64,000 bases of DNA from an uncultured Acidobacteriota bacterium. Its GTDB lineage: Bacteria > Acidobacteriota > Thermoanaerobaculia > Multivoradales > UBA5704. The first letter of the stretch is position 1, and each line of letters begins with the position of its first letter. Under the pieces are notes generated by a model, which was given only the letters and a program-made list of their open reading frames with translations, did no database searches and was not told the DNA's origin. The translations under genes and the position numbers were made by a program. The stretch is taken from the NCBI GenBank assembly GCA_963756455.1, contig CAVWNC010000004.1, positions 958,397 to 1,022,396 of the forward strand. The letters are read 5' to 3'. Shown in pieces: positions 1-56,500 of the stretch.

Positions 1-22478
<22,478 letters not shown>

Positions 22479-22646
22479 GATCTCGGCCTGGAGCAATTGC
22501 TCAATTTTTATTTCAGCTCCTCCCATTCAGCAGCTCGCCTCCTGTTGCGCCAACCTTATGATACGAATTTGGTTTGTTGTCGGTTTTCTTCTCAGCTGGA
22601 TGATAGGATTACGGCCTGCTGGACCTGCGTTTTCCTGGAGGACACC

Positions 22647-25062: not shown

Positions 25063-25119
25063 GAGATGAGATTTACTCCGCAGATCGAATAGAATCTGCT
25101 TGACAAAGCGGGAGTCACC

Positions 25120-34804: not shown

Positions 34805-35017
34805 TTAGGGACAGACGGCCGGCGGGCAGGGGCTGCAGATGGAGGTGCGAGTGCTGCAGGCACCGATGGTCAGGGCGCCGTTTACGCCCTTCAGCTGGTC
34901 GCCGGTGACGTCGATCGACGCCGCCGGATGGGCCGGCAGGGCGGCGCGCTCGGCGTCGCTCAGGCTGAGGTAATAGTCGAGATCACGGAAGGCGCGCGAC
35001 ACATGGAGCTTCTTCAT
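34805..35017 (-). CDS. lanA: Class II lanthipeptide precursor peptide candidate (70 aa)
   Basis: MKKLHVSRAFRDLDYYLSLSDAERAALPAHPAASIDVTGDQLKGVNGALTIGACSTRTSICSPCPPAVCP. It has an acidic, helix-prone leader ending ...QLKGVNGA. The C-terminal 23 residues carry 4 Cys and 6 Ser/Thr. A GGAGAG RBS precedes the start. ATG 35015-35017 overlaps the LanM TGA 35014-35016 (ATGA). Confidence 0.7.
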   Translation of the reverse strand: MKKLHVSRAFRDLDYYLSLSDAERAALPAHPAASIDVTGDQLKGVNGALTIGACSTRTSICSPCPPAVCP

Positions 35018-38343: not shown

Positions 38344-38523
38344 GATCCTCCTTCCCAAGGGGAATGTGCCGCGGTGGGACAGCCGGGCACATCGCATACT
38401 CTGTTAATTGAAGATTATTTTCAATAGAGCCATTGCAGGATATCGGGAGCTGAGGACGCCGATCGGCAGCCCGCGGCCACAGACCCTCCGATCCTGCCAT
38501 ACTGTGGTCCAAGGGGGCACTCT

Positions 38524-39036
38524 ATGAAGATCCAAACGCTCACGGCCGCGGCTGTCCGGTTCTTCGCGCTGTATCTCCTTCTGTCCGCCATCAACCTCGC
38601 CTCGGAGCTCGCCGTTTCGTTCGGGCTTCCGGAGGAGCTCCGTGGAGGCGGCATGCTGTACATTCTGTCGCTCGAGCTGGTGATCTCGCTGGTCGTCGTC
38701 TGGTTTCTCCTGGCCCGCACAGAGGTGGTGACCGGCTGGATCCTCCGCAGCCCGGCTTCAGGCGAGGAAGAGGCCGCCTTCACGACCGGCGATCTCTCCA
38801 TGCTCGCCTTTTTTGTCGCGGGTCTGATCTTTCTGATCTCCGGGCTCGAAACTCTCCTCCTCCAACTCTCCGGCTGGTTCTTTGCGTCCATCTTTCACCA
38901 CCCTGGGGTTCCCATCCGTGGCCAGGAGGGGGAACGGCTGGCGAGACTGAGCGGCTCCGTGGTCGAGGTGATCGCGGGCATCTGGCTCCTGCTCCGGGCC
39001 CGGAAGCCGGGAAAGGTGTCTGAGGCTGCCCTTTAG
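38524..39036 (+). CDS. Small integral membrane protein (4 predicted TM helices), unknown function
   Basis: MKIQTLTAAAVRFFALYLLLSAINLASEL...LYILSLELVISLVVVWFLLA...LAFFVAGLIFLISGL...VIAGIWLLL. An AAGGGGG RBS lies upstream. It is divergent from lanM across a 180-nt spacer. Confidence 0.55.
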   Translation: MKIQTLTAAAVRFFALYLLLSAINLASELAVSFGLPEELRGGGMLYILSLELVISLVVVWFLLARTEVVTGWILRSPASGEEEAAFTTGDLSMLAFFVAGLIFLISGLETLLLQLSGWFFASIFHHPGVPIRGQEGERLARLSGSVVEVIAGIWLLLRARKPGKVSEAAL

Positions 39037-39180
39037 CGAGCTCTTGTCCGAGGTTCTGAAAGGACCGTCGCCCCCTACAGGTCAGGCGCAGCCGTCCGAC
39101 GTGCTTCCTCGTCGGTCGGCTGCGGGCCTGCTTCTCCTGGGCGGAGGAGCGTCGCGGTAAAGTCGGGGCTTGGGACAGCC

Positions 39181-39951
39181 TCAATTGTCGAGCTTGAGCC
39201 CTCCCGGGCTCGTGGCCTGTTCGGCCCCGACCAGCTTGCCGTCCTCGAAGCGCAGATTGTTGGGAAGGCCGGTCTTCTCTCCCGCGGAGAAGGTCCAGAA
39301 GCCGATCTTCGCCCCGCGGTCCTGGCGCATGGACCAGGTCTCAACTTTCTTGCCCTTCTCCTCGCTCTCCTTGACGCTCTCGGGGCTGCCGGTCACGTAG
39401 AAGACCTGGCGTTTGGTCATGCCGTTCATCAGCTTGCGGTCGGCGATCGCCTTCTTGACGTCGGCCGACCAGTCGGCGTGCTCCTCCTGCAGGGGGACGT
39501 GCGAGAACGCCTGGTCGATCGCCTTCTTGAAATCGTCCAAGGTCAGGATGTTGACCAGCTTGATGACGGTGTCGTTGCCGTCCGACTTCCCCACTCCGGC
39601 CACCTCGAGCTCGGCGGCGTTCTCCTCGTCGTAGTACTTGATGCTGTCGAACTTGACGGAATCGTTGGGACCCACCCCCCAGTAAATGCTCTGGGCGTGG
39701 AACGGACCGGCCGAGAGGCCCTCCCCGCTCTGGGTGTTGCTCCCCGTGGGCGAGACCTCGACCAGGGGGAACTTGTAGGTCCCGAAGGGGTGTCTTCCCA
39801 GGCCGCAGGGGGCATCGATCCGGAAGTAGAGGGTCCCCTCCAGCAGCTTCTTCGCCGCCTTCTTGTCTTCTTTGGAAATGGCGGCCGAAGAGATCCCGGC
39901 GATAAACAGCAACACCAACGCCCACAGCGCTGCTTTCTGTTTCATGATCAT
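39181..39951 (-). CDS. Secreted Lys-rich hypothetical protein
   Basis: GGAG-N-ATGATCATGAAA start. Signal peptide MKQKAALWALVLLFIAGISSAA. Codon usage is distinctly less GC-rich than the neighbours. Confidence 0.55.
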   Translation of the reverse strand: MIMKQKAALWALVLLFIAGISSAAISKEDKKAAKKLLEGTLYFRIDAPCGLGRHPFGTYKFPLVEVSPTGSNTQSGEGLSAGPFHAQSIYWGVGPNDSVKFDSIKYYDEENAAELEVAGVGKSDGNDTVIKLVNILTLDDFKKAIDQAFSHVPLQEEHADWSADVKKAIADRKLMNGMTKRQVFYVTGSPESVKESEEKGKKVETWSMRQDRGAKIGFWTFSAGEKTGLPNNLRFEDGKLVGAEQATSPGGLKLDN

Positions 39952-40185
39952 CTCCTTAAATTGGGATGCGTTTCCCCACACGTTATCATCCAGCGCAGTG
40001 CTTGAGCAAGAAAAGTCGTGCAAAGAAGAAGCGAGCTCGTGCGAAGGCACAGGTAAAACCGGCTCTCCTGCTCTCGTTCAAGCTGTAGAGTTCTGTTCTG
40101 GATTTGACACAGAGAAGGGTTCTCTGGACTCGAGGGTATGCCATTCCACTGCAGCGGGAAACGGCACCCGGGGGCCGGCTCCCCT

Positions 40186-41670
40186 CTAGAAGGAAACGCC
40201 CTTGAGGGGGGAGGTCGGCCGATACTGGAGGTAGAGTGCCAGAAGAGCCGAGAGCGACAACTGGTCGAGCTGGTTCCTCCGAGCTTCGACGTCGAGCTTC
40301 TGGTTCAGCATGAATTCGGACAGGATGATGCCCTGCGTGAGAGCCGGCCGCGGATCGAGGATCGCCTCGGCGCCAAATTCCATCGAGATCAGTGCGAGGC
40401 GCCGCAGCTCCTGCTCGAGCGGGCCTCCACGCAGTGGACCGTTGCGACGGACGAGCCGTTCGAGCCCTCCTTCCGGTGAGCTGTAGCCCGCGAGCTCGCG
40501 GGCCTCCTTCCCGGACTCGCCTCCGACGATCTCCGCGGCGTCCTGGTCGAAGTCGAAGACGTCGTCCCAGATCGTTCGCCGCTCATTGTGGATGAACTGA
40601 TCCGTGCCGAGCACGCGATAGAGCTGTCGGGGCGGCACGATGAGCCGGCCCTCGGAGTGGGCGCGGTAGAGCACATACCACTGGAGCCGGTGGGTATGAG
40701 GGCCATGATCGAAGGGAGTGCCGACGTCGAAAATCTGATACATCCCGCGGAGGATCTCCCGGAACCCGTCGCGGCTGAGAAGATCTCGCACCTCCTGGCG
40801 AGGATGGAAGCCTTCCACCTCCTCCGCCTCGCTCAGGGCTCGGTCCAGGCTGATCTTCTGCTCTACCATGTGGGTTTGAAGCTCGCGCAGCTTCGTCTCG
40901 ACATAGCGGCGGTCCATCAGGATCGCCTTGGCATCGGCGATCTGATCGATCAGCACCCTGGGAACCCGGGGATAGCGCCGCTCAAGCCGCGAGGAGATGC
41001 CGCTCGCCCGAGAATCACGCTCCCGCCCGATCGCGCCGCCCTTGCCTCGCACCTGGGACGGCGCCGGCAGCCGCGTTCCCCATCGGCGTTCGTAGTCCTT
41101 CTCCGCCCGACTCCGCTCCGCCTCCGCCTCCTCGACCGCTTCCCAGTCGACCTGCCAGAGATAGGAGATCGAGTGAGATTTGGGAGGCTCGTAAGGCCGC
41201 CGCGGAGGCTCGCCGCCGCCACCGCTCGCCGCCAGGCCTCCGAACCCCTGCCAGGGATGGATCGGGTTGGCGACCAGAACGGCTCGCTGGGCGACCGTTC
41301 CGGACGGCCGCACCGCTTGAGGAGGGATACGCGCTGTATGGGGTGCAGGAGTGACCCGCGGGGCGAAAGAAGGCTGCGCGGCTGGGGGTGGCCGGAGTGC
41401 TCTTCTTCCGCTTGGCGCCGCCGACGCGGCCGATGCGGGATGGACGGGAGGTCCGGCATGCAGGCTCTTCCCGGGAGCCGGCGGAGCGGGAGCCGGGCGG
41501 GTGAGAGCGGCGGCCACGTGAGGCGCCAGGGGCCGCCCTCCCGCGACCCCCATCCGCTGCGGCTGGGCAGGCGCCGGCGCGGGGTTCCGGGCTGGAACGG
41601 CGCGATGAACCGCGAGCGCCGCCGCGACGTGCGGCGCGGTTCCCGGAAGAGATCTGCCCCTGGGGATCAT
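40186..41670 (-). CDS. Hypothetical protein. Pro/Ala-rich N-terminal third, then a conserved-looking C-terminal domain of unknown function. The true start is uncertain.
   Basis: The C-terminal two thirds read like a globular protein (e.g. ...YVETKLRELQTHMVEQKISLDRALSEAEEVEGFHPRQEVRDLLSRDGFREILRGMYQIFDVGTPFDHGPHTHRLQWYVLYRAHSEGRLIVPPRQLYRVLGTDQFIHNERRTIWDDVFDFD...). The N-terminal 170 aa are low-complexity. It is divergent from the ABC1 kinase gene. Confidence 0.4.
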   Translation of the reverse strand: MIPRGRSLPGTAPHVAAALAVHRAVPARNPAPAPAQPQRMGVAGGRPLAPHVAAALTRPAPAPPAPGKSLHAGPPVHPASAASAAPSGRRALRPPPAAQPSFAPRVTPAPHTARIPPQAVRPSGTVAQRAVLVANPIHPWQGFGGLAASGGGGEPPRRPYEPPKSHSISYLWQVDWEAVEEAEAERSRAEKDYERRWGTRLPAPSQVRGKGGAIGRERDSRASGISSRLERRYPRVPRVLIDQIADAKAILMDRRYVETKLRELQTHMVEQKISLDRALSEAEEVEGFHPRQEVRDLLSRDGFREILRGMYQIFDVGTPFDHGPHTHRLQWYVLYRAHSEGRLIVPPRQLYRVLGTDQFIHNERRTIWDDVFDFDQDAAEIVGGESGKEARELAGYSSPEGGLERLVRRNGPLRGGPLEQELRRLALISMEFGAEAILDPRPALTQGIILSEFMLNQKLDVEARRNQLDQLSLSALLALYLQYRPTSPLKGVSF

Positions 41671-41757
41671 GGGCCTAAAAATACCATGTGTCGTTGGGCT
41701 GCTCCGCTCGGCGGCAGGACCGGCACGGCATCCAGGCCTCGGCTATACTCCGCGGCG

Positions 41758-43410
41758 ATGCGGCGAGCCCTGCTCGATCTCTACCGGGCGTGCCTCCTGG
41801 GCCTCTACGGCGCCCGTTGGGGAGCGATCTACCTCGCGCACCTGCCGCGATGGCCGCGATGGCCGCGACATTCGCCGCACCGGCTCACCGCCAGCTACTG
41901 TCTCCGCCGCCTCATTGAGGACATGGGGGTGACCTTCGTCAAGCTGGGGCAGTTCCTCGCCATCCGCTACGACCTGCTCCCGGCCGCGGTCTGCCGCGAG
42001 CTGTCGAACCTCCTCAACGAGGTGCCGCCCTTGGGCTTCGAGGCGGTGCGCGCGGTCGTCGAGGCGGAGCTCGGCCGGCCGCTCGGCGAGCTCTTTGCGA
42101 GCTTCGAGCCGACGCCCCTGGGTTCGGCCTCGATCGCCCAGGTCCACCGGGCGCGAGCCCACGACGGCCATCTCCTCGCGATCAAGGTCCAGCGGCCTGG
42201 GGCGGAGACCGTCCTCCGTTCCGACATCAGGAACCTCCTCCGCTTGTCCTGGCTCGCCGACCGTTTCCACCTCCTGGGCAGCCTCTCGATGACCGAGAGC
42301 GTCCGCGAGGTGGCGGACTTCACCCTCCGCGAGATCGACTTCCTCAACGAGGGGAGGACCGCCGAGCGGGTGCGCCGGGAGGCCCCACCGTTCGTGCACG
42401 TGCCGGAGATCCGCTGGGACCTGACCACCCGCCGGGTTCTCGCCATGGAGCTCGTCGAGGGCAAAAGCCTCCTCGCGGTCTGCGAGCGCGCCGAGGCCGG
42501 CGATCCCGACGCCTTCTCGCACCTGCTCCCGGGCGTCGATCCGCAGCGGGTGATGGCGGACCTCGCCCGGGCCTGCCTCGACCAGCTCTTCACGACCGGC
42601 GTCTTCCACGGCGACCCGCATCCCGCCAACATCATCGTCGGCGGAGACGGCCGCATCGCCTTCGTAGATTTCGGCATCTTCGGCGAGCTGCCGAAGCGCC
42701 ATGCGGAGCGCCTCGCGGCCCTCCTCGGCAGCCTCGCCGCGGGACGCCTGGAGGCGGCTTACCGGTGCTACATGGCGCTCGCCACGCCCACCGAGGAGAC
42801 CGACCTCCCCCGCTTCCGGCGCGAGATGCTGGCGCTCCTCGGCGCCTGGTACGGCGCCGTCCGAACGGCTTCGTCAGGCTCGGCGGGCGCCGCGGAGCGG
42901 CTCGCTGCGCACTATCAGATGGAGGTCTTCCAGCTCATGCGCCGGCACCGGCTGCGGACGGAGCCTGACCAACTCCTCTTCTGGCGCACTCTCACCATTC
43001 TCGATGCCACCGCCTACCGCTTGCCCGTCGAGTTCGACCTCCTGGCCGCCATGAACGAGTTCTTCCGGGCGCGGCAGCAGCAGCCCGCGGAGCGCGCCGC
43101 CCGCCGCCTCGCCGACCCCGAGAGGGTTCTGGGGCTCGCGGATCTCCTCGTCCATGCCGCCCATGCCGCCGATGCCATTCATGCCGGCGGACGCGGGGAG
43201 CGTCCCCTCCGGGTCGTACGACGTCCCCGCCTTCCCAGCGCTGGCGCTCTCGCGGTCAAGCCGATCGTCCTCGTCCTGCTCGCGATCTCCACGGCCCTCC
43301 TCGCCCTGGGCCCCGCGGGCGGCGCGCTCGGACGATTCCTGGCGGCTGCGGTCGCGGCCTCCTGCGCCGGGGCCGCGGTCTTCTGGAGCGGGGAGAGGCG
43401 GCGACTGTGA
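41758..43410 (+). CDS. ABC1/UbiB-family atypical protein kinase
   Basis: FVKLGQFLAIRYDLLP, LGSASIAQVHRA, LAIKVQRPG, HGDPHPANI and FVDFGIFG are all ABC1/ADCK signatures. The track ORF (from 40588) is real only from ATG 41758. The upstream part is antisense to the minus-strand gene. Confidence 0.8.
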   Translation: MRRALLDLYRACLLGLYGARWGAIYLAHLPRWPRWPRHSPHRLTASYCLRRLIEDMGVTFVKLGQFLAIRYDLLPAAVCRELSNLLNEVPPLGFEAVRAVVEAELGRPLGELFASFEPTPLGSASIAQVHRARAHDGHLLAIKVQRPGAETVLRSDIRNLLRLSWLADRFHLLGSLSMTESVREVADFTLREIDFLNEGRTAERVRREAPPFVHVPEIRWDLTTRRVLAMELVEGKSLLAVCERAEAGDPDAFSHLLPGVDPQRVMADLARACLDQLFTTGVFHGDPHPANIIVGGDGRIAFVDFGIFGELPKRHAERLAALLGSLAAGRLEAAYRCYMALATPTEETDLPRFRREMLALLGAWYGAVRTASSGSAGAAERLAAHYQMEVFQLMRRHRLRTEPDQLLFWRTLTILDATAYRLPVEFDLLAAMNEFFRARQQQPAERAARRLADPERVLGLADLLVHAAHAADAIHAGGRGERPLRVVRRPRLPSAGALAVKPIVLVLLAISTALLALGPAGGALGRFLAAAVAASCAGAAVFWSGERRRL

Positions 43411-45023
43411 GCCCACCGCCATCCCCACCGACGGCCGCCGAGACTGCCCGGACCGGCGGCACCGGAGCCAGGCCGGCCTTCCCGGCGCTCTTCCGGCGGT
43501 CGCTCGAACGGCTCGGCCCCATCTTCGTCAAGATCGGCCAGTTCCTCGCCCTCCGGCCGGACCTCGTCCCGCGCGAGCTCTGCCTGGAGCTCCTGGACCT
43601 CGTCGACCGGGTTCCGCCCTCGGCGGACGAGTCTCCCGCGGAGGTCTTCGCGCAGGACTTCGGCCGGAGCCTCGAAGCGGCCTTCTCGGCGTTCGATCTA
43701 CGGCCGGTGGCGGCGGCATCCCTCGCCCAGGTCTACCAGGCGGAGACCTGGGACGGCCAGCAGGTGGCGGTCAAGATCCTCCGTCACGGCATCCACGAAC
43801 GGGTGCGGAGGGACCTCGCCCGCGCCCGCCGGCTCGCCCCGCTGGTCGATCTCGTCCGTCTCGTCCCGGGGGTATCGCTCCGCGAGGCGCAGCGGGAGAT
43901 CTCGCGCTGGATGCTCGTCCAGCTCGATCTCTTAACGGAGCTCAGAAACCTCCAGCGGATGGGAGCGCTCCTCGCGAGCGACCCCCACGTGCGGGTGCCG
44001 CGGGCCCTCCCCCAGCTTTCGAGCGGCCGCATCCTCACCATGGAGTTCCTCCCGGGCGTCCTCCTGAGCGATCTCCTGCGCCTGGTCAGGAGCGGCTCGC
44101 CCGGCGCGCCCGACGCAATCGCCGCTCTGGGCTTCGACCGCGACGTCCTGGCCGAGAACCTCCTCGGAACCTGCCTCGACCAGGTCTTTCGGCACGAAGT
44201 GTTCCTCGCCGACCTCCACCCGGGCAACCTCATCGCCCTGCCGGGCAACGTCATCGGCCTTGTCGACCTCAGCCTCGTCGAGACGCTCGAGATCGAGCTG
44301 CGGCCGGGCGTCCGCCGCTTCGCCGCCGCCGCCTATGGGGACGACCCGGAGGGCATGGTCCGCGAGCTCCTGGAGCTCCTCGTCCCAGGGGAGGGCGCGG
44401 ACCCGGAGGCGCTGCGGAACGATTTCCTCGCCGAGCACCACCGCTTTACCCGACTCCGCGATCTCGCGGGAGAGCCGGTGGAGGACGAGTCTCCCCTCGC
44501 CCACTCGATGATCAGCGTGCTGCGCGCCGCCCGGCGTCACGGTATGACGATCCCGCCGGGCCTCCTGACGCTCTACTCCTCGCTCCTCACCGCGGAGACC
44601 GTGGCGCGGCAGTTGGGCTCGCGGGCGAGCCTCGCCTCGGTGGGCAAGGAGTTCTTCAGGCGCCTGCGGATCGAGCGTCTTCGAGCGCAGCTCCAGCCGG
44701 AACGGATCGAAGCCGCCCTCCTCCCCGTCCTCGAAGCCCTGGACGAGCCGCCCGAGCGCTTCCTCCACCTCCTCCAGAGCCTCGCCGAAGGCAGCTTCGT
44801 CCTCAACGTCGAGAGCACCGACTCGCCGGCCAACCGCCGCGGCGCCAACCAGCGGACCCGGCTCCTCACCCTGGCGATCCTCTGGGTCGGCCTCGCCATC
44901 CTGCTGGCCTCCGGGCGCGACACCCTGGTGGCCGGACGGATCCCCCTTTCCTCTCTTCTCTGGGTCGCCTCCGGAGCCACTTTCCTATGGCTGATCGTCC
45001 TCTGGCGCAAGCTCCCCCGCTAA
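43407..45023 (+). CDS. Second ABC1/UbiB-family kinase with C-terminal TM helices
   Basis: FVKIGQFLALRPDLVP, AAASLAQVYQA, VAVKILRHG, DLHPGNLI, LVDLSL. C-terminal hydrophobic segments LLTLAILWVGLAILLA and LLWVASGATFLWLIVLW. The GTG start overlaps the upstream TGA (GTGA at 43407-43410). Confidence 0.8.
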   Translation: MSPPPSPPTAAETARTGGTGARPAFPALFRRSLERLGPIFVKIGQFLALRPDLVPRELCLELLDLVDRVPPSADESPAEVFAQDFGRSLEAAFSAFDLRPVAAASLAQVYQAETWDGQQVAVKILRHGIHERVRRDLARARRLAPLVDLVRLVPGVSLREAQREISRWMLVQLDLLTELRNLQRMGALLASDPHVRVPRALPQLSSGRILTMEFLPGVLLSDLLRLVRSGSPGAPDAIAALGFDRDVLAENLLGTCLDQVFRHEVFLADLHPGNLIALPGNVIGLVDLSLVETLEIELRPGVRRFAAAAYGDDPEGMVRELLELLVPGEGADPEALRNDFLAEHHRFTRLRDLAGEPVEDESPLAHSMISVLRAARRHGMTIPPGLLTLYSSLLTAETVARQLGSRASLASVGKEFFRRLRIERLRAQLQPERIEAALLPVLEALDEPPERFLHLLQSLAEGSFVLNVESTDSPANRRGANQRTRLLTLAILWVGLAILLASGRDTLVAGRIPLSSLLWVASGATFLWLIVLWRKLPR

Positions 45024-45045
45024 TACCTAGCGCCGCAGAAGGTGG

Positions 45046-46306
45046 AGTGAGGCTTTCCCCCGAGGACGCCATGTTCTGGCGTTTCCACGGTCCGGTCACG
45101 CCGCAGACGATCGCCCTCGTGACCTTCCTCGACGGCGTTCCGGACCTCGATCGCCTGAGAGAGCTCTTCGCGCGGACGATCGTCGCCTATCCGCGCATGC
45201 GGAGCGTCGTTCGGCCGGGCGTCCGGCCAGGAGAGCCGCCGACCCTCGTGCCGCTCCCGAAGATCGACCTCCGCCAGCACGTCGAGGCCCTCACCCTGCC
45301 TGAGACGGCCGGCCGCGCCGACCTTGAAGCGGAGCTCGCCCGCCGCTTCTCGACGCCGCTCCCCATGGACCGGCCGCTCTGGCACCTCCTCCTCGTCGCG
45401 CTCCCGGTGTCGGGAGCCCCGGCGGCGATCCTTTGGCGGATTCACCACCTGGTGGCCGACGGCGTCACGGCCCTCGCCTTCGCGCACGAGATCCTCGGCG
45501 GCGCCGACGAGCGCCGCGGCTCGCCGCCGCCGCCCGCGCTGCCGGCCTCCCGGCCGCGGCCGCGGCTCCTCGCCCTCCTGCGCAGCCTGCGCGCCTGGGG
45601 CCGGCTCGACCGCGGGCCCAGCCCGCTCAACGGGGAGAGCTCGCCGGAACGCCGGTTGACCCCCGTCGACTTGGACCGCGCGACGCTCCGCCGGCTGATG
45701 CGCCGCTTCGACGCCAGCTCACTTGAAGTCCTGCTCAACGTCCTCACCTCCGCCCTGCGGCGCTACCACGAGCATCATGGCGCGCCGGTCGACCGCGACC
45801 TCACCGTCGTGATCCCGTACGCCGATCAACCGCCGTCGCGCGCCCGCTCCCAGGGGAACTTCTTCGGCTCGCGGTTCGTCCGCCTGCCCTTGGGAGAGCC
45901 CGACCCGGGCCGCCGCTTCGACGCTCTCCGGCGCGCCGTCCGGGAGGCGGGAGAGAACGGGGTGGACGAGCTGCTGCGTTTCGTCAGCGGCAAGTTCCAC
46001 CGCCTGCCCCGTGGCTTCCAGCGCGACCACCTGTGGGACTTCGCCCTGCGCTGCAACGCCGCCTGCACCGTGCTGCCCAGCCGGCTGGGCAAGGCGCGGC
46101 TCGACGGGCACGCGATCAGCGCCCACTATGCCGGCGCCGCCCTCCCCTTCTCGCACGGCGCCGCCTTCACCTTCCTCGCAACCGAGAACGCCCTCCGCGG
46201 GATGATCGTCTCCGATCCGGCGATCGTGCCGGACCCCGAAAATCTGCGCGACTTCCTTCTCGCGGGAGTGGAGGAGCTCGCTACTCGGCAGGCTCGCGGG
46301 GCGTGA
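45046..46306 (+). CDS. WS/DGAT-family acyltransferase (wax ester synthase / diacylglycerol acyltransferase-like)
   Basis: MRLSPEDAMFWRFHG (N-terminal LSPxD..F motif) and the catalytic HHLVADGVTA (HHxxxDG). It is the real 3' portion of track ORF 43154..46306. The GTG start at 45046 follows a GGTGGA RBS. Confidence 0.65.
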
Positions 46307-47585
46307 TTCCCTGCCGGTCGGCCTCGCCGGCGATCCGGCGGATGTATTCGGCCTGCCAGCGGAGCCCCCCGTCGCTGGCGACCGCCGGGGTCTGCCGGAA
46401 GGCTTGCGCTTCGTAGGCGGGGACGGCGGGGATCTCCAGGTCGGCGAGCGGCCGGCGCTCCCGCCGCCGGGCGAGCGCCGCCTCGACGCTCGGCCGCAGC
46501 ACCTGGGCCTTGAGCCGCTCCCGCTCGGCCTCCTGGGCCTGGAGCTCCGGCATCACCGTGCGGGCGAAGAGGCCGAGAGACTCACAGAGATGGTCGTGCC
46601 GGGTCTTTCCTACCGGCTGCAGGAGGACCACCTGGTCGACCCCGGCTTCGGCGAAGCCGAGCAGATAGTCGCGCAGCTGCCGCGGTGTGCCGATGCCGAG
46701 CTGGCGTCCGGGGAGGGCCGGCCGCACCTTCTGGAACTCTTCCCAGAGGTCGCTCCGGCCCGGCACGTGGGTGCCGTGGCCGTAGTAGTACGAGAGGGCG
46801 AACTGGAAGAACTGGAAGCCCTCGATGGCGCGCTCGCGCGCGACGCCCTCGTCCTCGTGGCAGAAAAAGGGGGTCACCATCGCTACGTTGGGGTTGACCG
46901 CGTAGCCGATCGGCGAGCACTCGCGGCGGAAGATCGTGTAGTACTCCTCGGTCCAGCGCTTCGCCTCGTCGGGGTCGATGAAGGCGAAGGACAGCGCTCC
47001 CAGGCCCAGCCGGGCGGCGAGCCGGATGGATTCGCGCCGCGTGCATGCCATCCAGAGGGGCGGGTGCGGCTTCTGGAGCGGCTTGGGGACGACGTTGCGG
47101 CAGGGCATCGAGACGTGCCGGCCGGCCGCGCCGCCGTAGGGCTCCATCACCATCATGTCGGTGATCTGCTCCAGCGCCTCGCGCCACATCTCGTGGCGCT
47201 CCTGCCGGTCGATGCCGAAGGCTTCGAGCTCGACCCGCGAGGCGGATTCGCCGGTCCCGAATTCGACCCTGCCGTTCGACACCAGGTCGAGCGTCGCGAT
47301 GCGCTCGGCGGCCCGGGCCGGGTGGTTGTAGCGGGGCGGCATCAGCATGACCCCGTGGCCGAGGCGGATCGTCCGGGTGCGCTGGGAGGCGGCGGCCAGG
47401 AACACCTCCGGCGCCGACGAGTGCGAGTACTCCTCGAGGAAGTGGTGCTCGGCGAGCCAGACGTGGTCGATGCCGAGGCGGTCGGCGAGCTCGATCAGGT
47501 CGAGCGCCTCGGTGAACAGGCGATGCTCGCCGCCTGCGCTCCACGGCCTTGGCAGTTGGTGCTCGCAGAAGAGCCCGAGCTTCAT
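46281..47585 (-). CDS. Luciferase-like (LLM-class) flavin-dependent oxidoreductase
   Basis: MKLGLFCEHQLPRPW...IDHVWLAEHHFLEEYSHSSAPEVFLAAASQRTRTIRLGHGV... is typical of LLM monooxygenases. Start ATG 47583-47585 overlaps the PKS-B TGA 47582-47584 (ATGA). Confidence 0.8.
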   Translation of the reverse strand: MKLGLFCEHQLPRPWSAGGEHRLFTEALDLIELADRLGIDHVWLAEHHFLEEYSHSSAPEVFLAAASQRTRTIRLGHGVMLMPPRYNHPARAAERIATLDLVSNGRVEFGTGESASRVELEAFGIDRQERHEMWREALEQITDMMVMEPYGGAAGRHVSMPCRNVVPKPLQKPHPPLWMACTRRESIRLAARLGLGALSFAFIDPDEAKRWTEEYYTIFRRECSPIGYAVNPNVAMVTPFFCHEDEGVARERAIEGFQFFQFALSYYYGHGTHVPGRSDLWEEFQKVRPALPGRQLGIGTPRQLRDYLLGFAEAGVDQVVLLQPVGKTRHDHLCESLGLFARTVMPELQAQEAERERLKAQVLRPSVEAALARRRERRPLADLEIPAVPAYEAQAFRQTPAVASDGGLRWQAEYIRRIAGEADRQGITPREPAE

Positions 47586-50500
47586 TCGACGCTCCCGACG
47601 CTCCCCGAAGCCAGGCCGGCCCGGGGACCGAGGTGGAAGGAGAGCGAGCTCTCGCCGCGATCGATCCGCACGGTCGTCTCTTCAACCAGCGTCGGCCGTA
47701 AGACGGTGGGCGCGGACCCGAGGCCGCCCAAAACGCGGATCTCGACCCGGCTCTCCCCCACCGCAGGACCGCGGTGCGCAGGGATGGTGTAGCGGCCGAT
47801 GTGGATGGGCCCCGAGGCGAGCGGCATCCTCGTCGGATCGCGCGTCAGGTCACGCGTCGGATCGATGGGGAGGAAGGTGATCGTCCCGAAGTCCACGGGC
47901 TTGCCGTCGACGGTGACCTCGCCTTCGACCGCGGCGCGCTCGACGTCGGCGAGGAAGCCCGAGGCACGCAGCCAGTCGTGGAGCCGCTCCTTCCAGGCGG
48001 CGAGCACCGGATCGCCGGCGGCGAGGCCGGCGCCGTGGGCGCCCCAGGGGAAGACATGGAGCTCGGCCGGCACCCGGGCGCGGCGCAGGGCGCCGAAGAA
48101 AGCGAGGCTGTGCTCGACCGCCACCGCCCCGTCCTCGCCGGTGTGGAAGAGGAAGGTCGGCGGCGTGCGCTCGTCGACATGGCGGTCGGCCGACAGGGCG
48201 TCGAGAAGCGCCGGATCCGGATCGTCGCCTAGGAGGCTCCGCCGGGTGACCACGCTGAGCCACTCCATGAGGCTGATCACCGGGTAGGCGAGGACGAGGA
48301 AGTCGGGCCGGCAGCCGTACCGCTCGACGGGGTCCCCGGCGGCCGCATCCCCGTCGTCGTGGCGGGTGGCGAGCGTCGCCGCGAGGTGCCCGCCGGCCGA
48401 AAAGCCCATCACTCCCACTCGGCGGGGCGAGACTCCGAGGTCGGCCGCCCGGCTGCGGACGTAGCGCACGGCGCGCCGCACATCCTCGAAGGGTGCTGGG
48501 TGGCGATAGCGCGGCGCCAGCCGATAGCCGAGGACCACGGCCGTCACCCCGAGCGTCTGGAGCCACTCGGCGACCTGGTGCCCTTCGGTGTCCATGGCGT
48601 GGGCCGAGTATCCCCCACCGGGGCAGACGACGATCGCGGTGCCCGTCGCAAGCTCCGACGCCGGAGTGTAGATGCGGAGGGTCGGCCGGTCCTCCGGCTC
48701 CGAGCCGAGGCTCCCCGGGGCACCCTCGGGCCAGAGGAGGAGGGGGACCGGGCCAATGCCGCCCTGCGTCCCGTCCACCGGCACTCGCGGCAATGGCGGC
48801 TCCGAAGCCTCCAGCTGGCGCTGCCAGAAAGCGCCGCCGGGGCCGGCCGCAACGGCGGCCGGGGTGGCAACCGGAGCGGCAGCCTGGGCGGAGGGCGGCG
48901 AGCCGAGACGGCCGGCGACGTAGGCGGCGAGCGATGCGACGCTCCGGTGGTCGAGGAAAGCCGTCGAGGCGAGCGAGAGCCCCAGAGCCGCCTCCAGCCG
49001 GCGGGTGAGCTCCGTCGCCACCATCGAGTCCATCCCGAGCTCCAGGAAGTCCTGCCGCGGCGCGGGCGGCTCGGGGAGGGCGAGGGCGGCCTGGACCTCA
49101 CGCTCGATCCGGGAGCGGATGAAGGCGAGGCGCTCCTCGGGCGTCGACCCGACCGCGGCCGGGCTCGCCTCCGGAGGCTCCTGCCGCCCGCTCCCGGTCC
49201 CTATCCAATGCCGGCGCCGTTCGAAGGGGTAGGTCGGAAGCTCGACCCGGCGCCGCCGCCAGGGCCGATCCCAGGCTGCGAAGTCGGGGGCGAACCCTTC
49301 CACGAAGAGCCGGGCGACGGCCTGGGCGATCTGCCGATCCGCATCGCCCTCAACATCGCCCTCGTTCAAGCCGGCGATCCGAACCATCCCTTCAGGGAGC
49401 GCGCCGTCCCCGGCGGCGGTCTCGGGACCGACGGTCAGGAGGACGCCACAGCCCGCCTCGATCAGGTCGTCTCCGGAGAGCGCCAGTCGCGCCGGCCCGG
49501 AGGCCCGCTCGCTCCAGGCGGCAAGCTCCGCGACCGACGGCCCCTGGGGGAACTGGGCGACGAGCCGGAATGCTTCCTCGGTGGCGAGCGCCCCCGCCGC
49601 CACCGCCGCCGCGTACTCCCCCACGCCGTCTCCCAGGACGACGTCGGGCTCGAACCCCCAGCTCCGCCAGAGGTCGGCCAGGGCCAGCTCCAGGGCGAGG
49701 AGGGCAGGCCCCGCCGCGAGCGGCGGGCCGCCCGCGAGTTGCTCACAACGCTCCATCTGCTCCTGGAAGACCGGCTGCGATCGGCGGAGCCCCCGGCCGG
49801 CGGCCGCGGGCGAGCCCGCCGCCTCTTGAAGCCCGGGAAAGAGCCAGGCACACCGCGGCCGCGCCGCCCGGCTGCTGCCGAGGGAGAGGCCGGGAACGAT
49901 CTCGCCCCGCGCGAGGCCATGGAGGAGCGCCCCGGCCTCGGCCGCCGACGCCGCGACCACGGCGGCCCGGTGCTCCAGGTGGCTGCGCCCGGTCCCGGCG
50001 GTGAAGGAGACGTCCGGGAGCGAGGCTTCCGGGTGCTCCAGAGGCTCCAGAAGCCGGCGCGCGTAGCGCTCGGCCAGCTCCACCAGGGCCGGCCGGCTCT
50101 TGGCGGAGAGGACCAGGAGGTGGTGGGTCCGCTCCGCGGCCGGTTCCGCCGCTTCTTCCGGCGGGGGCGGGGCGGTCACGACGACGTGGGCGTTGGTGCC
50201 GCTGAAGCCGAAGGCGCTCACCGCCGCGATCCTCTCCTTCCGGGGCCACGGCGCGGCCTCGGCGAGCACCGAGAGGGGGAGGCGCTCCCAGTCGACGTGC
50301 GGGCTCGGGGTCTCGAAGTGCAGGTGCTTCGGGAGCCGCCCCCGCGAGAGGGCGAGCACGACCTTGATCAGCCCGGCGACCCCGGCGGCGGCTTCAAGGT
50401 GGCCGATGTTGGTCTTGACCGACCCCACGAGAAGCGGCCGGCCGGCCTCCCGTCCCTCACCGAAGACCGCCCCGGCCGCCCGTAGCTCGATGGGATCGCC

Positions 50501-53500
50501 CAGGCTCGTGCCGGTGCCGTGGGCCTCCAGGTAATCGACCGCCGCCGGCTCGACGCCGGCCTGTGCCAGGGCCTCGCGGAGGACCCGCTCCTGGGCCGGG
50601 CCGTTGGGCACTGTGAGGCCGCTCGCGGCGCCGTCGTGGTTGACCGCCGAGCCGGGGAGGAGGGCCAGCACGCGGTCGCCGTCGCGCCGGGCGTCGGCCA
50701 GGCGTTTCAGGACGACGACGCCGCAGCCCTCGCCTCGGACGTAGCCGTTGGCGCGGGCGTCGAAGGTCCGGCACCGCCCGTCGGGCGACAGCATGCCGGT
50801 CTTCGACATGTGGATCATGCCGCTCGGGCTGAGGATCGCGTTGACGCCGCCGGCGAGGGCGAGATCGCAGCGGCCGGAGCGCAGGTGGTCGCAGGCCAGG
50901 CTGACCGCCACGAGCGACGAGCTGCAGGCGGTGTCGATCGCCTGGTTCGGTCCCTGGAGCCCCAGGACGTGGCTGATCCGGCCGACCCCGGTGCTGTGCG
51001 CCGTGCCGGTGGCGAAATAGGTGTCCCCCAGGCCATCGCCGCGGGCGAGGAGCTCGCCGTAGTCGCTCGTGCTCAACCCCATGAAAACGCCCGTGCGGCT
51101 GTCCACCAGGCTCGCCGGGGCGATGCCGGCGTGCTCCAGGGCCTCCCAGCTGACTTCGAGGAGCCAACGATGCTGGGGGTCGAGGCTCGCCGCCTCGCGC
51201 GGGCTGATGCCGAAAAACGCCGCATCGAAGCGGTCGGCCTCGCCCAGGAACCCGCCGTCCCGGGTGTACATCTTCCCCGGCGCTTGCGGGTCGGGGTCAT
51301 AGAACGCCTCGCGGTCCCAGCGCTCGGGCGGCACCGGCCCGACGGCGTCCGTCCCGGTCTCCAAGAGCCGCCAGAAGGCGTCGAGGTCGGGTGCCTGGGG
51401 GAAGCGGCAGGCCATGCCGACGAGGGCCACGGGCTCAGCGGTCTCCGTCCCTGCCGACACCGCCGGCCGTGGACTGGACGGACGGACGACCGTCTCCTCT
51501 CCCGCCTCCCCGAGCTGGCCGAGGAGGTGGTCGGCGAGACGATGGACGCTCGGGTAGTCGAAAGCGAGGGTTGAGGGCGGCGGCGGGGCGAGTGCGAGGT
51601 CGCGCTGGACGCGGTTGCGCAGCTCGACCGCCATCAGCGAGTCCATGCCGAGGTCGAAGAAGCCGGCCTCCCCATCCGGCGGGGAGGCGAGCTGCAAGAC
51701 CTCGACGACCTGGCGCTCCAGGTAAGCGCGTAGCTCGTCCTGGCGTCCCTTGGGGGAGACGGCGCGCAAGCGGGCGAGCGACGCGGCTTCGCGGTTCGGG
51801 CGGGTCGGGAGCGCCGGAGGAGGCGGCAGGAGATCCTCGACCAGCGAGGCCGACCGCGCTCCTGCTCGGGCGGCGAAGCGCCGCCAGTCGACCGCCGCCA
51901 CCAGGGCCTGGGGTGGACCGCCGGCGAGCAGGCGGCCGAGAGCGCCGAGGGCCTCGCCGGCCGCGAGGAGCTCGCCGCCCTGGGCACGATAGGCACCGGC
52001 GGCCTGAGGGTGGGAGGCCGCCATCCCTCCGATGCCGGCGATGTCCCAGAGCCCCCAATCGACCGCGAGCGCCGGCAGGCCGAGCCCGCGGCGGTGGTGC
52101 GCGAGAGCATCGAGAAAGGCGTTGGCGGCGGCGTAGTTGGCCTGCCCCGGCGCTCCCAGGACCGACACCGCCGACGAGTAGAGGACGAAGAAGTCGAGCG
52201 GATCTTCCCGCGTCAGAAGGTGGAGAGCCCAGGCGCCGCGGAGCTTGGGCACCAGGACGGCGTCGAAACGCTCGGCGCTCTGCTGGGCGAGGACGCCGTC
52301 GTCGAGGGTGCCGGCGGCGTGGACGACGCCGTGGAGGGGCGCCGACCGCCGCAGCTCGGCGAGGATCTCCGCCAGCCTCGCCTCGTCGGCCACGTCGCCC
52401 AGGAAGCAGCGGACGGCGCAGCCGCCGGCGCGGAGGGCGTCGAGCCTCGCCTCAACCGCGGGGCCGGCCGGCCGGCGCGCCAGGAGAGCGAGGCTCCGCG
52501 CTCCTGCCGCGGCCAGCCACTCGGCCGTCCGGAGGCCCAGCGCCCCGAGCCCGCCGGCGATCAGGTAGGTGCCGTCGGTGCGGAATGCGAAGCGCTCCTC
52601 CCCCTGGGGCATCGGGAGCCGGACGAGCCGGGGCACGTAGCGGTTGCCGCCGCGAAGGACGACCTCCTCCTCAGGGCCGGGGGCAAGGAGCTCCGCAATC
52701 AGGAGATCGACCTCTTCCGCTCCCAGCGGGTCCGCAGTGAGGTCGATCCGCGCGCACCGCGCCGCCGGCCGTTCGAGGGCGATCACCCGCCCGAGCCCCC
52801 AGACGGGCGCCTGGGCCGGGTGGACCGGAGCCTCGCCGTTCCCTTCTCCATTCCCGATATCCTGCACGCCGCGGGTCAGAAGCCAGAGGGGGACGCTCCG
52901 CCACTCCGCCGCCCCCTCGACTGCCCGCGCGAGATGGAGGACGCTCCGGCAGCCCCGCTCCTGGGCGGCGAGGAGCCCGTCGCCGGAGAGCTCGCCCTCG
53001 GGCGTCTCCGCCCAGAGGTGGAGGATGCCGCGGCAGGGCCGGCCGAGCGCCCGGGCCTCTTCCCGCACCTCGTCCAGGAGGCGGGCGTAGCCGGCCTCGT
53101 CCGCGGGGGGGATCGCCGTCTCGCGCGGGCCGGTCCGCGCGTAGGACTCCCCGGGGAGGGCTACGAAGCACACCTCGCCCACGGCCCCAAGCCGGGCGGC
53201 GAGATCGCGCCCCAGGGAGCCGCCGTCGGCAAAGAGGAGCCAGGAGCCCTCCTCCCCGGGGCCCGCCGCCAACAGTGCCGGCTCCGCCGTCTCCGGCCGT
53301 GGGCGAGGCCGCCATTCCAGCCCGTAGAGCGGCAGGCTGTCCTGCCGCTCCGCGTAGGGGACGAGGTTTTCGAGTTGGGCGCGGTTCGCGCGATCGAGCT
53401 CCGCCCAGCGGCTCGCGGGCTCCTTCCTGGCGGTCAAGAGGACGTAGCGCGCGAGGCCCCTCTCCAGCATCCGCCCGAGCTGGTGGTAGGAACGGGCCGA

Positions 53501-56500
53501 CGCGGCGACGTTCCGGTCGACCTCCCGGGCCCCATCGGCGACCTCCGTCGCGTTGCGCTCGAAGTCCTCGTCATGGAGAAAGTTGGCGATCTCCCGGCTG
53601 ATGTCGATCGACTCGGTCAGCCGGAGACGGTGGGTCGAAAGGAGCTGCACCCACTCTTCGCAGGTCGAGAAGAAGGACGAGGTCTCCTCGTGTTCGATGC
53701 CGGTGTCCGAGGTCGAGAGGAAGTCGGCAAGGACGAGGAGGCCGCCGTCGTCCAGATGCCGCTCGATGTTCGCGAAGAGGCGTGCCTTCTCGCGGATGTG
53801 GTGGGCCACCTCGAAGCCGAAGACGAGCTGGTAGCGGGCGGGAAAATCGTCCTCCGCGCTGTTCCGGTGGAAGATCTCGACCCTGGAGGCGAGCCCTTCC
53901 TCGGCCAGCCGGCGGCGACCGAAGGCCGCCTGCTCCCCTGAGAGGGTATAGCCGTGGAGCCGGAGGTGGGAGTGGGCCTGGGCGAGGAGGACGAGGTCGC
54001 TCCCCATCCCGCAGCCGAAGTCCAGGGCGCTCGCGATCTCGGCGAAGGGGACCTTCGCGAAGAGCGCCCGGCGCATCTCCTGCTGCGCCCGGCGCACCAG
54101 GGCGGCCTGCTCCGGATAGCGCTCCGGCTGGCCCATCGCCCGCACCCAGGAGAACCCCGGGACGCGCTGCGGCAGCGGCCCGAAGGTCAGGAAGGGGGCC
54201 TCCGTCCGCCCTTCGAGCCCGCGGAGGAGGGCATCGTAGTAGTCGGCGACGACGGTCCCCGGAGTGGCGTCAGAGCTTCCGGAGCCGCCGGGCGTACCAG
54301 AGGGGACGCGGACCCAGACGCGACGCCGCGCGAAGGGATAGGTGGGGAGGGTGAGCTTGCGGCGCGGCCAGGGCCGGTCCCAGGCGGCGAAGTCGGGGGT
54401 GACGCCGCGGACGTAGAGCCTCGCCACGGCCTCGGCGAGCTGGCGTCCCTCGCTCCGCTCCCGGCGCAGGGAGGGGACCAGCTCCGGCCGCGGCACCGAC
54501 TCCGGCCAGGCGCGGCCGGCCATGCCTGTGAGCACCGCCTGCGGACCGACTTCGAGGAGCACCCCGACGCCTTCCGCGGCGAGGGTGCGGACGCTCTCCC
54601 CGAACTGCACGGGCTCCCGGGCGTGCCGCCGCCAATAGAGAGCTTCCAGAACCTGGCCGGCCGCCGGTGGCCGGCCGGTCAAGTTGGTCACCAGGAGCCG
54701 CTGGGCGGGGCGGAAGTCGACGACGCTCGCAGCGGCTTCGAAAGCGTCGAGGACCGGCTCGACGAGGACGGAGTGGAAGGCGTGAGAGGTGGCCAAGACC
54801 TTGCCGCGCACGCCGCGCTCCGCGAGCCGCGCCACGAGAGCCAGGAGCCTCGCCTGCGGACCGCTCACCACGACGTGGGCGCCGTTGTCGGCGGCCAAGG
54901 CCAGCCCCTCCTCTCGCGCCAGCTCCCGCTCGATCGTCCCGACGTCAGTGAAGAGAGAGGCCATGCCGCCGCCGGCCGGCAGGCTTCCCATGAGCTCGGC
55001 GCGCCGGGCGATCAACGCTAGCCCCTCTTCGAGGGTGAAGACGCCGGCGACGACCGCCGCCGCGTACTCCCCGACGCTGTGGCCCAGGACCACGTCCGGC
55101 TCGACGCCCCAGCTCCGCCAGAGCTCGGCCAGGGCCACCTCGACGGCGAAGAGCGCCGGTTGGGTGTAGCGGGTGTCGTCCAGGAGAGCCGGGGCGCCAT
55201 TGCCTCCCGCCGCGGCGAAGAGCACGTCGAGGAGCGGGCGGTCGAGCTTCCCCCGGAGCCCCTGGGCACAGCGCTCAAGGATATCCCGGAAGACCGGCTG
55301 GGTGCGGTGGAGCTCGCGGGCCATCCCCGGGTACTGGCTGCCCTGTCCGGGGAAGAGCCAGGCGACCTTGGGCCGGCCGCGGACCTGGCCGCGGAAGAGA
55401 CCGGGAGCGCCCTCGCCCACCCGCAGCTGGCCGAGGAGCTCCCGCGCCTCGGCCGCCGAGCCGGCGACGAGGGCCGCCCGCTCTTCCAGGGGGTGGCGCC
55501 CCACCCCGAGGGTGTAGGCGACGTCCGCCAAGTCGGCGGTAGGATGCTCGGCGAGCCAGGCGAGCTGGCGGCCTGCCAGCGCGGGGAGGGCGGCGGCGGC
55601 GCGTCCCGAGAGGGTCCACACGTGCTCGCCGCGCTCGGCCGGTGCGGCGGGCGTTATCGGAGCCTGCGACGGTATCGGAGCTTCGGCCAGCACCACGTGG
55701 GCGTTGGTGCCGGCGAAGCTGAAGGCGCTCACCCCGGCGATCCGCGGACCCGCGGGCCAGGGGACGGGCTCGGCCGCGACCCGCAGCGGCAGCCGCTCCC
55801 AGGGGATGTGGGGATTCGGGCGGACGAAGTGGAGCTGCCGAGGGATGACGGGCTTCTGGAGCGCGAGGACGACCTTGATCAGCCCGGCGATCCCGGCCGC
55901 CGCTTCGAGGTGGCCCAAGTTGGTCTTGACCGCCCCGACGTAGAGCGGCCGGCCAGGCTCCCGGCCGGAGCCGAAGGCGGCGCCGGCGGCTTCCATCTCG
56001 ATCGGATCGCCCAGGCTCGTCCCCGTGCCGTGGGCTTCCAGGTAGGCGACGTCTTTGGGCTCGACCCCGCTCCGCTTCAGAGCCTCGCGGATCACCCGTT
56101 CCTGGGCGCGGCCGTTGGGCACCGTGAGGCCGCTGCTCGCCCCATCCTGGTTGACGGCGCTGCCCCGGACCACCGCGAGCACCGGGTCGCCGTCTCGCTG
56201 CGCGTCCGCCAGGCGCTTGAGGACGACCGCGCCGCACCCTTCGCTCCGCGCATAGCCGTCGGCCGCGGCGTCAAAGGACTTGCAGCGGCCGTCCGGGGCG
56301 AGCATCCGGGCCTTCGAGAAGTTGATCATGGCGAGCGGGGTGAGGACGGCGTTGACGCCGCCCGCGAGCGCCAGGTCGCACTCCCGGGAGAGCAGGCTCC
56401 GGCAGGCGAGGTGCACCGCCACGAGCGACGAGCTGCAGGCGGTATCGATGGCCATATTGGGTCCTTCGAGGCCGAGGAGGTAGCTGATCCGGCCCACCGC

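Follow-up and report, generated by a model that had tools for sequence, protein, structure and literature searches.

The stretch analysed here (hereafter the window) comprises 64,000 nucleotides of contig CAVWNC010000004.1 from an uncultured Acidobacteriota bacterium, and the element in question is the C-terminal end of one of its modular polyketide synthases (PKSs), PKS-B, in which an esterase follows the last acyl carrier protein (ACP). PKS-B (3169 amino acids) is encoded on the minus strand at 47582-57091; its ATG was placed at 57089-57091 within the longest minus-strand open reading frame (ORF) of the region (47582-57823), and its stop codon is the TGA at 47582-47584. The domains are ordered ketosynthase (KS), acyltransferase (AT), methyltransferase (MT), ketoreductase (KR), ACP, KS, AT remnant, ACP, esterase, and beta-sandwich. 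The first AT carries the intact motif GHSVGE/HAFH at 55067-55084. The last module consists of a KS, an AT remnant, and an ACP, without a KR. Its KS (50315-51442) has kept the catalytic Cys, His, and His residues (DTACSS, HGTGT, and NIGH). The degenerate AT remnant (49376-49846) lacks the active-site Ser, as GDGVGE at 49616-49633 replaces the expected GHSxGE. The terminal ACP is a PP-binding domain at 48917-49111 with a GMDSM motif (phosphopantetheine Ser codon at 49025-49027) and is joined by an Ala/Pro-rich linker of about 55 amino acids (48752-48916) to a BD-FAE-type alpha/beta-hydrolase domain (47954-48751). The catalytic elements of this hydrolase are a GGG stretch encoded at 48611-48619, a Ser at 48398-48400, an Asp at 48131-48133, and a His at 48035-48037, and the protein concludes with a transthyretin-like seven-strand beta-sandwich (47585-47953); all of these features lie on the minus strand. 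The final approximately 390 codons of PKS-B are a complete two-domain serine esterase, that is, a BD-FAE-type hydrolase together with its own beta-sandwich.

The motifs VCPGGGYS, GFSAGGHLA, HVFPWGAHG, and PIHIGRYTIPAHRGPAVG were all found in frame with the preceding ACP (minus-strand translation of 47582-49801), with the GGG loop and the Ser, Asp, and His intact, which bears out the original prediction that PKS-B ends in an esterase-type alpha/beta-hydrolase. The GC content at third codon positions (GC3) in the PKS-B frame stays between 0.83 and 0.98 throughout 47700-50100, the ACP-esterase junction included, and inspection of GC3 and frame revealed no stop or switch of the high-GC3 frame at this junction. 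A frameshift or lost stop between the ACP and the hydrolase was ruled out by the continuous GC3 and the absence of a stop. Homology to the esterase family starts near 48751, about 20 codons upstream of the earlier boundary of 48690, with LLLWPEG at 48722-48742, and the tail after the hydrolase (47585-47953) counts about 123 residues, folded part and terminus together. One loop of the beta-sandwich holds a 12-residue insertion, DPTR-DLTR-DPTR, encoded by three imperfect 12-nt tandem repeats (47828-47863, minus strand). This insertion is missing from the aligned homologues, its loop was modelled at lower confidence, and it looks like a slippage insertion.

By profile, catalytic triad, and domain signature, the domain in the release position of PKS-B belongs to the BD-FAE family. 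The BD-FAE HMM (PF20434) from Pfam matched the full PKS-B ORF with 88.4 bits (E 6e-25; cut-off 26.8) and a 405-amino-acid C-terminal fragment with 93.1 bits (E 2.4e-26). The esterase also matched positions 6-112 of the 210-position Abhydrolase_3 model and positions 44-190 of the 213-position Peptidase_S9 model, and this split pattern, with Abhydrolase_3 at the N-terminus and Peptidase_S9 at the C-terminus, is the signature of the BD-FAE family (PMC8165983). BD-FAE has been described with a Ser-Asp-His triad and an active site that forms a shallow, solvent-exposed furrow able to accept bulky esters (PMC8165983). An alignment of 89 sequences shows no variation at S124, D213, or H245 and conservation of G51-G53 (numbered with 48767-48769 as residue 1), and PKS-B retains all of these residues. 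The Pfam HMM for the PKS thioesterase (PF00975), in contrast, did not match the full PKS-B or the 405-amino-acid fragment at E <= 0.01 and was not found in any window ORF scanned, so that the earlier reading of the domain as something other than a type I PKS thioesterase holds. The likeness to hormone-sensitive lipase (HSL) or arylesterase proposed at the same time was correct as to the esterase type and wrong as to the family. The NCBIfam HSL models (LipP1, GESAG, GTSAG, GCSAG, and HaHSL) scored 26-69 bits against cut-offs of 320-430, and the oxyanion box is PGGG rather than the HSL-type HGGG; HSL family membership was ruled out on these two grounds. The closest NCBIfam models are carbohydrate acetylesterases, namely PaeX (NF041902; E 1.6e-56, 191.7 bits against a cut-off of 550) and AxeA1 (NF042968; E 2e-47, 161.5 bits against a cut-off of 700), and by these scores the protein is related to both and equivalent to neither.

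Structural comparison gave the same assignment. A profile built from 89 homologues and searched against the sequences of solved structures found 6A6O at E 1.7e-96. The AlphaFold model of the esterase and tail (pLDDT 92, pTM 0.91), whose scores indicate that the two domains are predicted to form one rigid unit, also had 6A6O as its nearest structure (44% identity; target-normalised TM 0.91). Neither the 60 sequence matches to solved structures that were shown nor the 50 fold matches listed include a PKS or nonribosomal peptide synthetase (NRPS) thioesterase; all are esterases, lipases, or related hydrolases.

The origin of the tail can be read from standalone relatives of the esterase. Thousands of proteins of about 395-410 amino acids, those with names being mostly from Planctomycetes, share 50-57% identity with it at 96% query coverage, the best full-length homologues reaching E 1e-126. 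Homology to these proteins begins exactly at LLWPxGAPG and continues through the tail, and because it spans the tail, the latter is the native C-terminal domain of a two-domain esterase family. The beta-sandwich is conserved in all of the approximately 400-amino-acid standalone homologues, so the tail is neither the stretch of 146 unrecognised residues nor the additional fused tailoring domain for which it had been taken. A signal-peptide-like N-terminus was found in 110 of 119 standalone homologues by a crude test (Met start, K/R within the first 12 residues, and a hydrophobic stretch); PKS-B has the ACP linker in that place. By these comparisons, the PKS-B esterase descends from the mostly Planctomycetes-named family of approximately 400-amino-acid proteins, having lost the N-terminal stretch and gained a linker to the ACP instead. 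No biosynthetic cluster surrounds the standalone homologues in the two neighbourhoods checked, and membership in such clusters was rejected for these two. The top-scoring search match, P0001, is a tandem double esterase without the tail and is not relevant.

Having assigned the domain, we examined whether the fusion occurs elsewhere. A word-indexed search of 5.8 billion proteins with the AT remnant, ACP, esterase, and tail as the query, limited in sensitivity, returned no PKS-BD-FAE fusion. An exhaustive HMMER search of 1.84 billion representatives identified a 1442-amino-acid protein, P0307, that is 60% identical over its last 358 residues and has the Pfam order KR, ACP, KS, KS/AT linker only, ACP, and BD-FAE with the tail. 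P0307 is encoded on a nanopore-derived contig (L016; ENA ERZ26871208) with a GC content of 0.62, compared with about 0.72 in the window. Upstream of it lie an orthologue of PKS-A, the PKS encoded upstream of PKS-B in the window, and the segment of a PKS-B orthologue that covers KS, AT, and MT; downstream lie a convergent gene for a WS/DGAT-family acyltransferase, a phosphopantetheinyl transferase (PPTase) gene, and a MacB fragment. PKS-B and P0307 are colinear, with 59% identity over 911 amino acids (KR to KS) and 51% over 603 amino acids (ACP to tail), and the approximately 158 amino acids of AT remnant between these two blocks are missing from P0307. The linkers between ACP and esterase have an AFWQ motif in common. 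Because a colinear orthologue with the same KS-ACP-esterase-tail ending occurs in an independent assembly, the fusion is not an assembly error; it is genuine, and a second organism has kept it. The search for other PKS-esterase fusions recommended by the original prediction was productive in this respect, and the possibility it raised, that two genes had been joined in assembly, can be set aside.

The PKS-B orthologue on L016 was called as two genes (1433 and 1442 amino acids) separated near position 9830, a tblastn match crosses this split, and the split is consistent with an indel error in the nanopore-derived contig. The WS/DGAT gene on L016 is also frameshifted, near 14655-14690. A third copy of the esterase, 58% identical, was identified on contig L007 (Logan SRR31256909) directly upstream of a co-oriented WS/DGAT gene; the contig stops within its N-terminal part, which makes it a possible fusion. 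When the AT remnant and ACP region was used as the query, a scan of representative genomes returned only four unrelated PKS modules of other architectures (32-36% identity) and a metagenome scan returned no match. The PKS-linked esterase clade looks rare. No description of a PKS fused to an HSL, Abhydrolase_3, or "esterase domain" was found in the literature covered by our search.

The PKS-linked copies differ from their standalone relatives at positions that are otherwise nearly fixed. Compared with 119 standalone homologues, the PKS-B esterase deviates at 10 of the approximately 100 columns whose conservation in that set is 95% or more, whereas the homologues themselves deviate at a mean of 0.95 and a maximum of 4 of these columns. 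Eight substitutions are common to the PKS-linked copies (H61T, S131A, H172S/N, G174V, S175T, G215A, N220H, and V247A) at positions that are 92-100% conserved in the standalone set. Seven of them occur in all three copies (window, P0307, and L007) and H61T in two, as the L007 sequence does not cover that position. In place of the DHEGH, FGHxGS, and VENS of the standalone proteins, the PKS-linked copies read DTEGH, VVT, and VEHS or VDHS. Of the five corresponding subclade motifs tested, no more than one is present in any of the 186 homologues fetched. According to the secondary-structure order of the AlphaFold model, six of the substituted positions are no more than 2-10 residues away from the oxyanion loop, the nucleophile, the Asp, or the His, and the other three belong to the loop that connects strand 158-161 with helix 173-180. 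We propose from these sequence features that the PKS-linked copies form their own subclade, characterised by fusion after a KS-(AT-less)-ACP module, derived residues, and a nearby WS/DGAT gene; the L007 copy fits by seven of the eight residues and by its WS/DGAT neighbour. The pattern suggests that the substrate site has been remodelled while catalysis was preserved, as would be expected of a new function rather than decay, and the changes near catalytic residues argue for a substrate altered from those of carbohydrate deacetylation or deferuloylation.

The genes surrounding PKS-B were then considered. PKS-A (57088-63936, minus strand; ACP-KS-truncated AT-DH-MT-KR-ACP) has an AT that matches only positions 2-117 of the 319-position profile, leaving an intact AT in only one of the three modules of the cis-AT system made up of PKS-A and PKS-B. 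The PKS-A stop overlaps the PKS-B start in an ATGA at 57088-57091, and the PKS-B stop overlaps in an ATGA at 47582-47585 the start of a gene for an LLM (luciferase-like) flavin/F420-type oxidoreductase (46281-47585, minus strand); the two overlaps suggest translational coupling of the three genes. Convergent with this operon is a gene found by six-frame reading for a WS/DGAT-family O-acyltransferase with an HHLVADG motif (45071-46306, plus strand), which is preceded by two ABC1 atypical-kinase genes (40588-43410 and 43407-45023, plus strand). A WS/DGAT gene lies close to the esterase in all three loci: the two are immediate neighbours in L016 and L007, and a single gene separates them in the window.

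The closest homologues of the LLM protein (69-71% identity) share the LLM-ABC1-ABC1 arrangement. The recurring set occupies 9017-16952 in L007, 3277-7794 in a further contig (L008), and 40588-47585 in the window, and includes WS/DGAT in the window and in L007, where it comes after the LLM and ABC1 genes and a PPTase gene is nearby. The L007 esterase is about 7 kb from these LLM-ABC1-ABC1 genes, which share 52-71% identity with their window counterparts. The L008 cassette has in its vicinity PKS parts including an ACP, AprA-like methyltransferases, a patatin gene, a discrete thioesterase, and a tannase. At 62-65% identity, homologues of the LLM protein occur in unrelated or catabolic contexts, and the cassette was observed only at 69% or above. 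The LLM-ABC1-ABC1 set, with or without WS/DGAT, may be an uncharacterised lipid-biosynthesis module. The best PDB and NCBIfam matches of the LLM protein are generic or of the MsnO8/F420 type and fall below the cut-offs; an exact look-up of the protein returned no record. Another co-occurrence of an LLM with an esterase was noted on contig L010, where a discrete 296-amino-acid BD-FAE/Abhydrolase_3 esterase (2603-3493) lies in an LLM-rich catabolic cluster that also contains thiolase, enoyl-CoA hydratase, and P450 genes.

The remainder of the window encodes other biosynthetic and accessory functions. A single open NRPS frame of at least 7508 codons (3-22526, minus strand) runs off the left end of the window; each 3754-amino-acid half contains four Condensation, four AMP-binding, and three PP-binding stretches, and the plus-strand ORFs listed across this region are shadows. 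It is followed by two consecutive MacB_PCD/FtsX permease genes (22456-27579, plus strand; 868 and 819 amino acids), and the MacB fragment near the orthologous PKS in L016 shows 35-37% identity. Between the NRPS and MacB genes and the PKS region is a class II lanthipeptide synthetase, LanM (35014-38397, minus strand; DUF4135 and LANC_like), with a small ORF (34805-35056) overlapping its 3' end. Genes for an AbiEi antitoxin-like regulator (31802-32407, minus strand) and a Cupin_5 (DUF985) protein (34078-34524, plus strand) are located in a lower-GC3 region between the MacB genes and LanM. The codon composition deviates in 38400-40200, which holds a hydrophobic 170-amino-acid ORF and a 289-amino-acid ORF with a hydrophobic N-terminus (39181-40050; GC1 0.56, GC2 0.42), neither of which has a Pfam match.

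The reading we favour from the domain order and gene content, and hold with about as much belief as doubt, is that the esterase domain is a chain-terminating hydrolase that unloads the ACP of a PKS lacking a thioesterase, in a pathway to wax esters akin to the mycobacterial one for phthiocerol dimycocerosate (PDIM). The last module (KS, dead AT, and ACP) would present a 3-oxoacyl thioester to the catalytic Ser, the 3-oxo group being expected on the last ACP because this module has no KR; if the products of the module-1 KR and MT are kept, the chain would be a 5-hydroxy-4-methyl-3-oxoacyl thioester. Resolution of the acyl-enzyme by water would yield a beta-keto acid, which would readily lose CO2 to give a methyl ketone, and resolution by a hydroxyl would yield a lactone or ester, attack of the 5-hydroxyl giving a dihydropyranone. 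The released polyketide could then be reduced or oxidised by the translationally coupled LLM oxidoreductase and the product esterified by the WS/DGAT acyltransferase to a wax-ester-type lipid, which the nearby MacB-type pumps may export.

Several observations weigh against chain termination by the esterase. The characterised BD-FAE relatives cleave O-acetyl or O-feruloyl esters of sugars, not thioesters (PMC8165983 and the description of 6A6O). By analogy with PapA5, the WS/DGAT enzyme, which the original prediction had not noticed, could itself unload the ACP, leaving another role for the esterase, or could cooperate with it in off-loading. In the 22 kb of L016 read, neither the LLM nor the ABC1 genes accompany the fusion. 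The last module has a dead AT in the window and no AT in P0307, which places elongation by that module in doubt, and only two fusions are certain (the window and P0307), with one more possible (L007).

Two alternatives, both of which we consider unlikely, give the esterase an oxygen ester as its substrate. According to the first, the LLM protein is a Baeyer-Villiger monooxygenase, converting 3-oxoacyl-S-ACP to R-O-CO-CH2-CO-S-ACP or the released methyl ketone to an acetate ester, and the esterase cleaves the resulting O-ester, freeing an alcohol for WS/DGAT; in the on-ACP version, cleavage would regenerate malonyl-ACP. An ester of a small acyl group with a large alcohol is like an acetylated sugar and suits an O-acetyl esterase ancestry, the stop of the esterase-bearing gene overlaps the LLM start, the expected 3-oxo group goes with the missing KR of the last module, and WS/DGAT requires an alcohol substrate. 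An AT that is dead or absent in both orthologues would also be tolerable if malonyl-ACP were regenerated, and the more distant LLM homologue on L010 clusters with a BD-FAE/Abhydrolase_3 esterase in a catabolic setting. Because the L016 fusion has no adjacent LLM gene, none being present within the 22 kb read around it, this idea was demoted from lead to rival; moreover, the window LLM shows none of the similarity that would mark it as one of the known Baeyer-Villiger LLMs. OocK and MekA/MekB would be the precedents for this reading. It would be something of a long shot that KS, dead AT, ACP, and esterase form with the LLM a self-regenerating oxidative release device that delivers a chain-shortened alcohol to WS/DGAT and leaves malonyl-ACP for the next round, in which case the AT of the module could have decayed (window) or vanished (P0307) for that reason.

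The second alternative makes the domain a tailoring esterase that acts on a free intermediate or product, either in deprotection or in remodelling of the esters made by WS/DGAT, and is fused only for co-localisation. The L007 homologue, directly upstream of and co-oriented with WS/DGAT, fits such an esterase/acyltransferase pair, and the shallow, open furrow of BD-FAE can accept bulky esters (PMC8165983). Two features favour an ACP-bound chain instead: the domain sits right after the terminal ACP, with a linker conserved in two organisms, and the PKS has no other release domain.

It is quite unlikely, in our estimation, that the domain edits in the manner of a type II thioesterase, ridding the terminal ACP of acetyl or other short acyl groups that have stalled there, with true release left to WS/DGAT acting PapA5-style. 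The ancestral specificity for small acyl groups such as acetyl and the conserved WS/DGAT neighbour agree with editing, CylH of cylindrocyclophane biosynthesis is a precedent for a PKS thioesterase at the C-terminus with an editing instead of a terminating function (PMC5707447), and TesA of the PDIM pathway has also been discussed with a housekeeping role (PMC3709824). Editing hydrolases are normally discrete PF00975 proteins, however, and the conserved remodelling near the catalytic residues suggests a new substrate, not a retained acetyl specificity.

An artefact or accident, in which faulty assembly, faulty sequencing, or a recent read-through joined a neighbouring esterase gene to the PKS, is very improbable and effectively refuted. 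The empty word-indexed search would have agreed with it, but an organism with another GC content has the same fusion, the frame runs on unbroken with high GC3, the triad is intact, the PKS-linked copies have derived substitutions in common rather than random decay, and the signal-peptide-like N-terminus has been cleanly replaced by a linker with a conserved motif. A divergent canonical PKS/NRPS type I thioesterase shares the superfamily, the triad, and the post-ACP position, but its likelihood is practically nil given the strong BD-FAE, Abhydrolase_3, and Peptidase_S9 matches, the absence of PF00975 at E <= 0.01, and the lack of any such thioesterase among the structure matches shown or listed.

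Chain release sets the chemistry of the polyketide end, and the known release domains are few, comprising the thioesterase, the reductase, condensation-like domains, the sulfotransferase-thioesterase, and a few others. The fusion is probably a new kind of chain-termination domain, a non-canonical alpha/beta-hydrolase. A modular PKS has acquired a whole carbohydrate-type esterase, including its accessory beta-sandwich, as its C-terminal domain, and at least two organisms have kept it. If the domain does unload the ACP, it would provide a new compact off-loading unit for engineering and a clear natural example of an extracytoplasmic-type hydrolase repurposed for assembly-line chemistry. The set of PKS, esterase, and WS/DGAT, accompanied in some loci by LLM, ABC1, PPTase, and MacB genes, points to an uncharacterised PDIM-like wax-ester pathway outside mycobacteria.

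Among known systems, non-thioesterase alpha/beta-hydrolases that act in trans to release polyketides or 3-ketoacyl chains include fungal LovG and the plant enzymes DMH/Cer-q and MKS. Like the PKS-B esterase in the reading favoured here, each is a recruited esterase/lipase-type hydrolase acting on a carrier-bound (3-oxo)acyl thioester; unlike it, they are separate proteins from other alpha/beta-hydrolase families and have no beta-sandwich. Cer-q is mentioned in PMC5620584. The BD-FAE esterases, represented by BD-FAE itself and by 6A6O, the acetyl ester-xyloside bifunctional hydrolase of Caldicellulosiruptor lactoaceticus, have the fold, family, triad, Gly-rich oxyanion loop, and split Pfam pattern in common with the PKS-B esterase. 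They are free proteins acting on acetylated or feruloylated sugars, whereas the PKS-B copy is fused to an ACP and has no signal-peptide-like N-terminus. The standalone "acetyl esterase/lipase" proteins of about 400 amino acids are colinear with it over both domains. The lipase of Archaeoglobus fulgidus (2ZYR, about 460 residues) gave a weak fold match to the beta-sandwich tail (E 0.03) with no sequence relationship, an analogy at most. The canonical type I PKS thioesterase (PF00975) has the superfamily, the triad, and the position after the last ACP in common with the PKS-B esterase, but the latter has no detectable profile similarity to it and carries an extra beta-sandwich, and the site of BD-FAE is shallow and solvent-exposed (PMC8165983).

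The closest parallel at the level of the pathway is mycobacterial PDIM biosynthesis, in which the product of the Pps PKSs is released from PpsE by the alpha/beta-hydrolase TesA and the pathway further employs the ketoreductase Rv2951c, the acyltransferase PapA5, and the MmpL7/DrrABC transporters (PMC3709824). TesA is a discrete type II thioesterase, whereas the window has a fused BD-FAE domain, and PapA5 is distantly related to WS/DGAT, if at all. We regard the resemblance, drawn from the set of functions, as one of logic rather than membership. In these terms, the locus matches the PpsA-E pathway in combining a modular PKS whose last module lacks a KR with a release hydrolase, an oxidoreductase, an HHxxxDG O-acyltransferase of the sort that produces wax-type esters, and an exporter.

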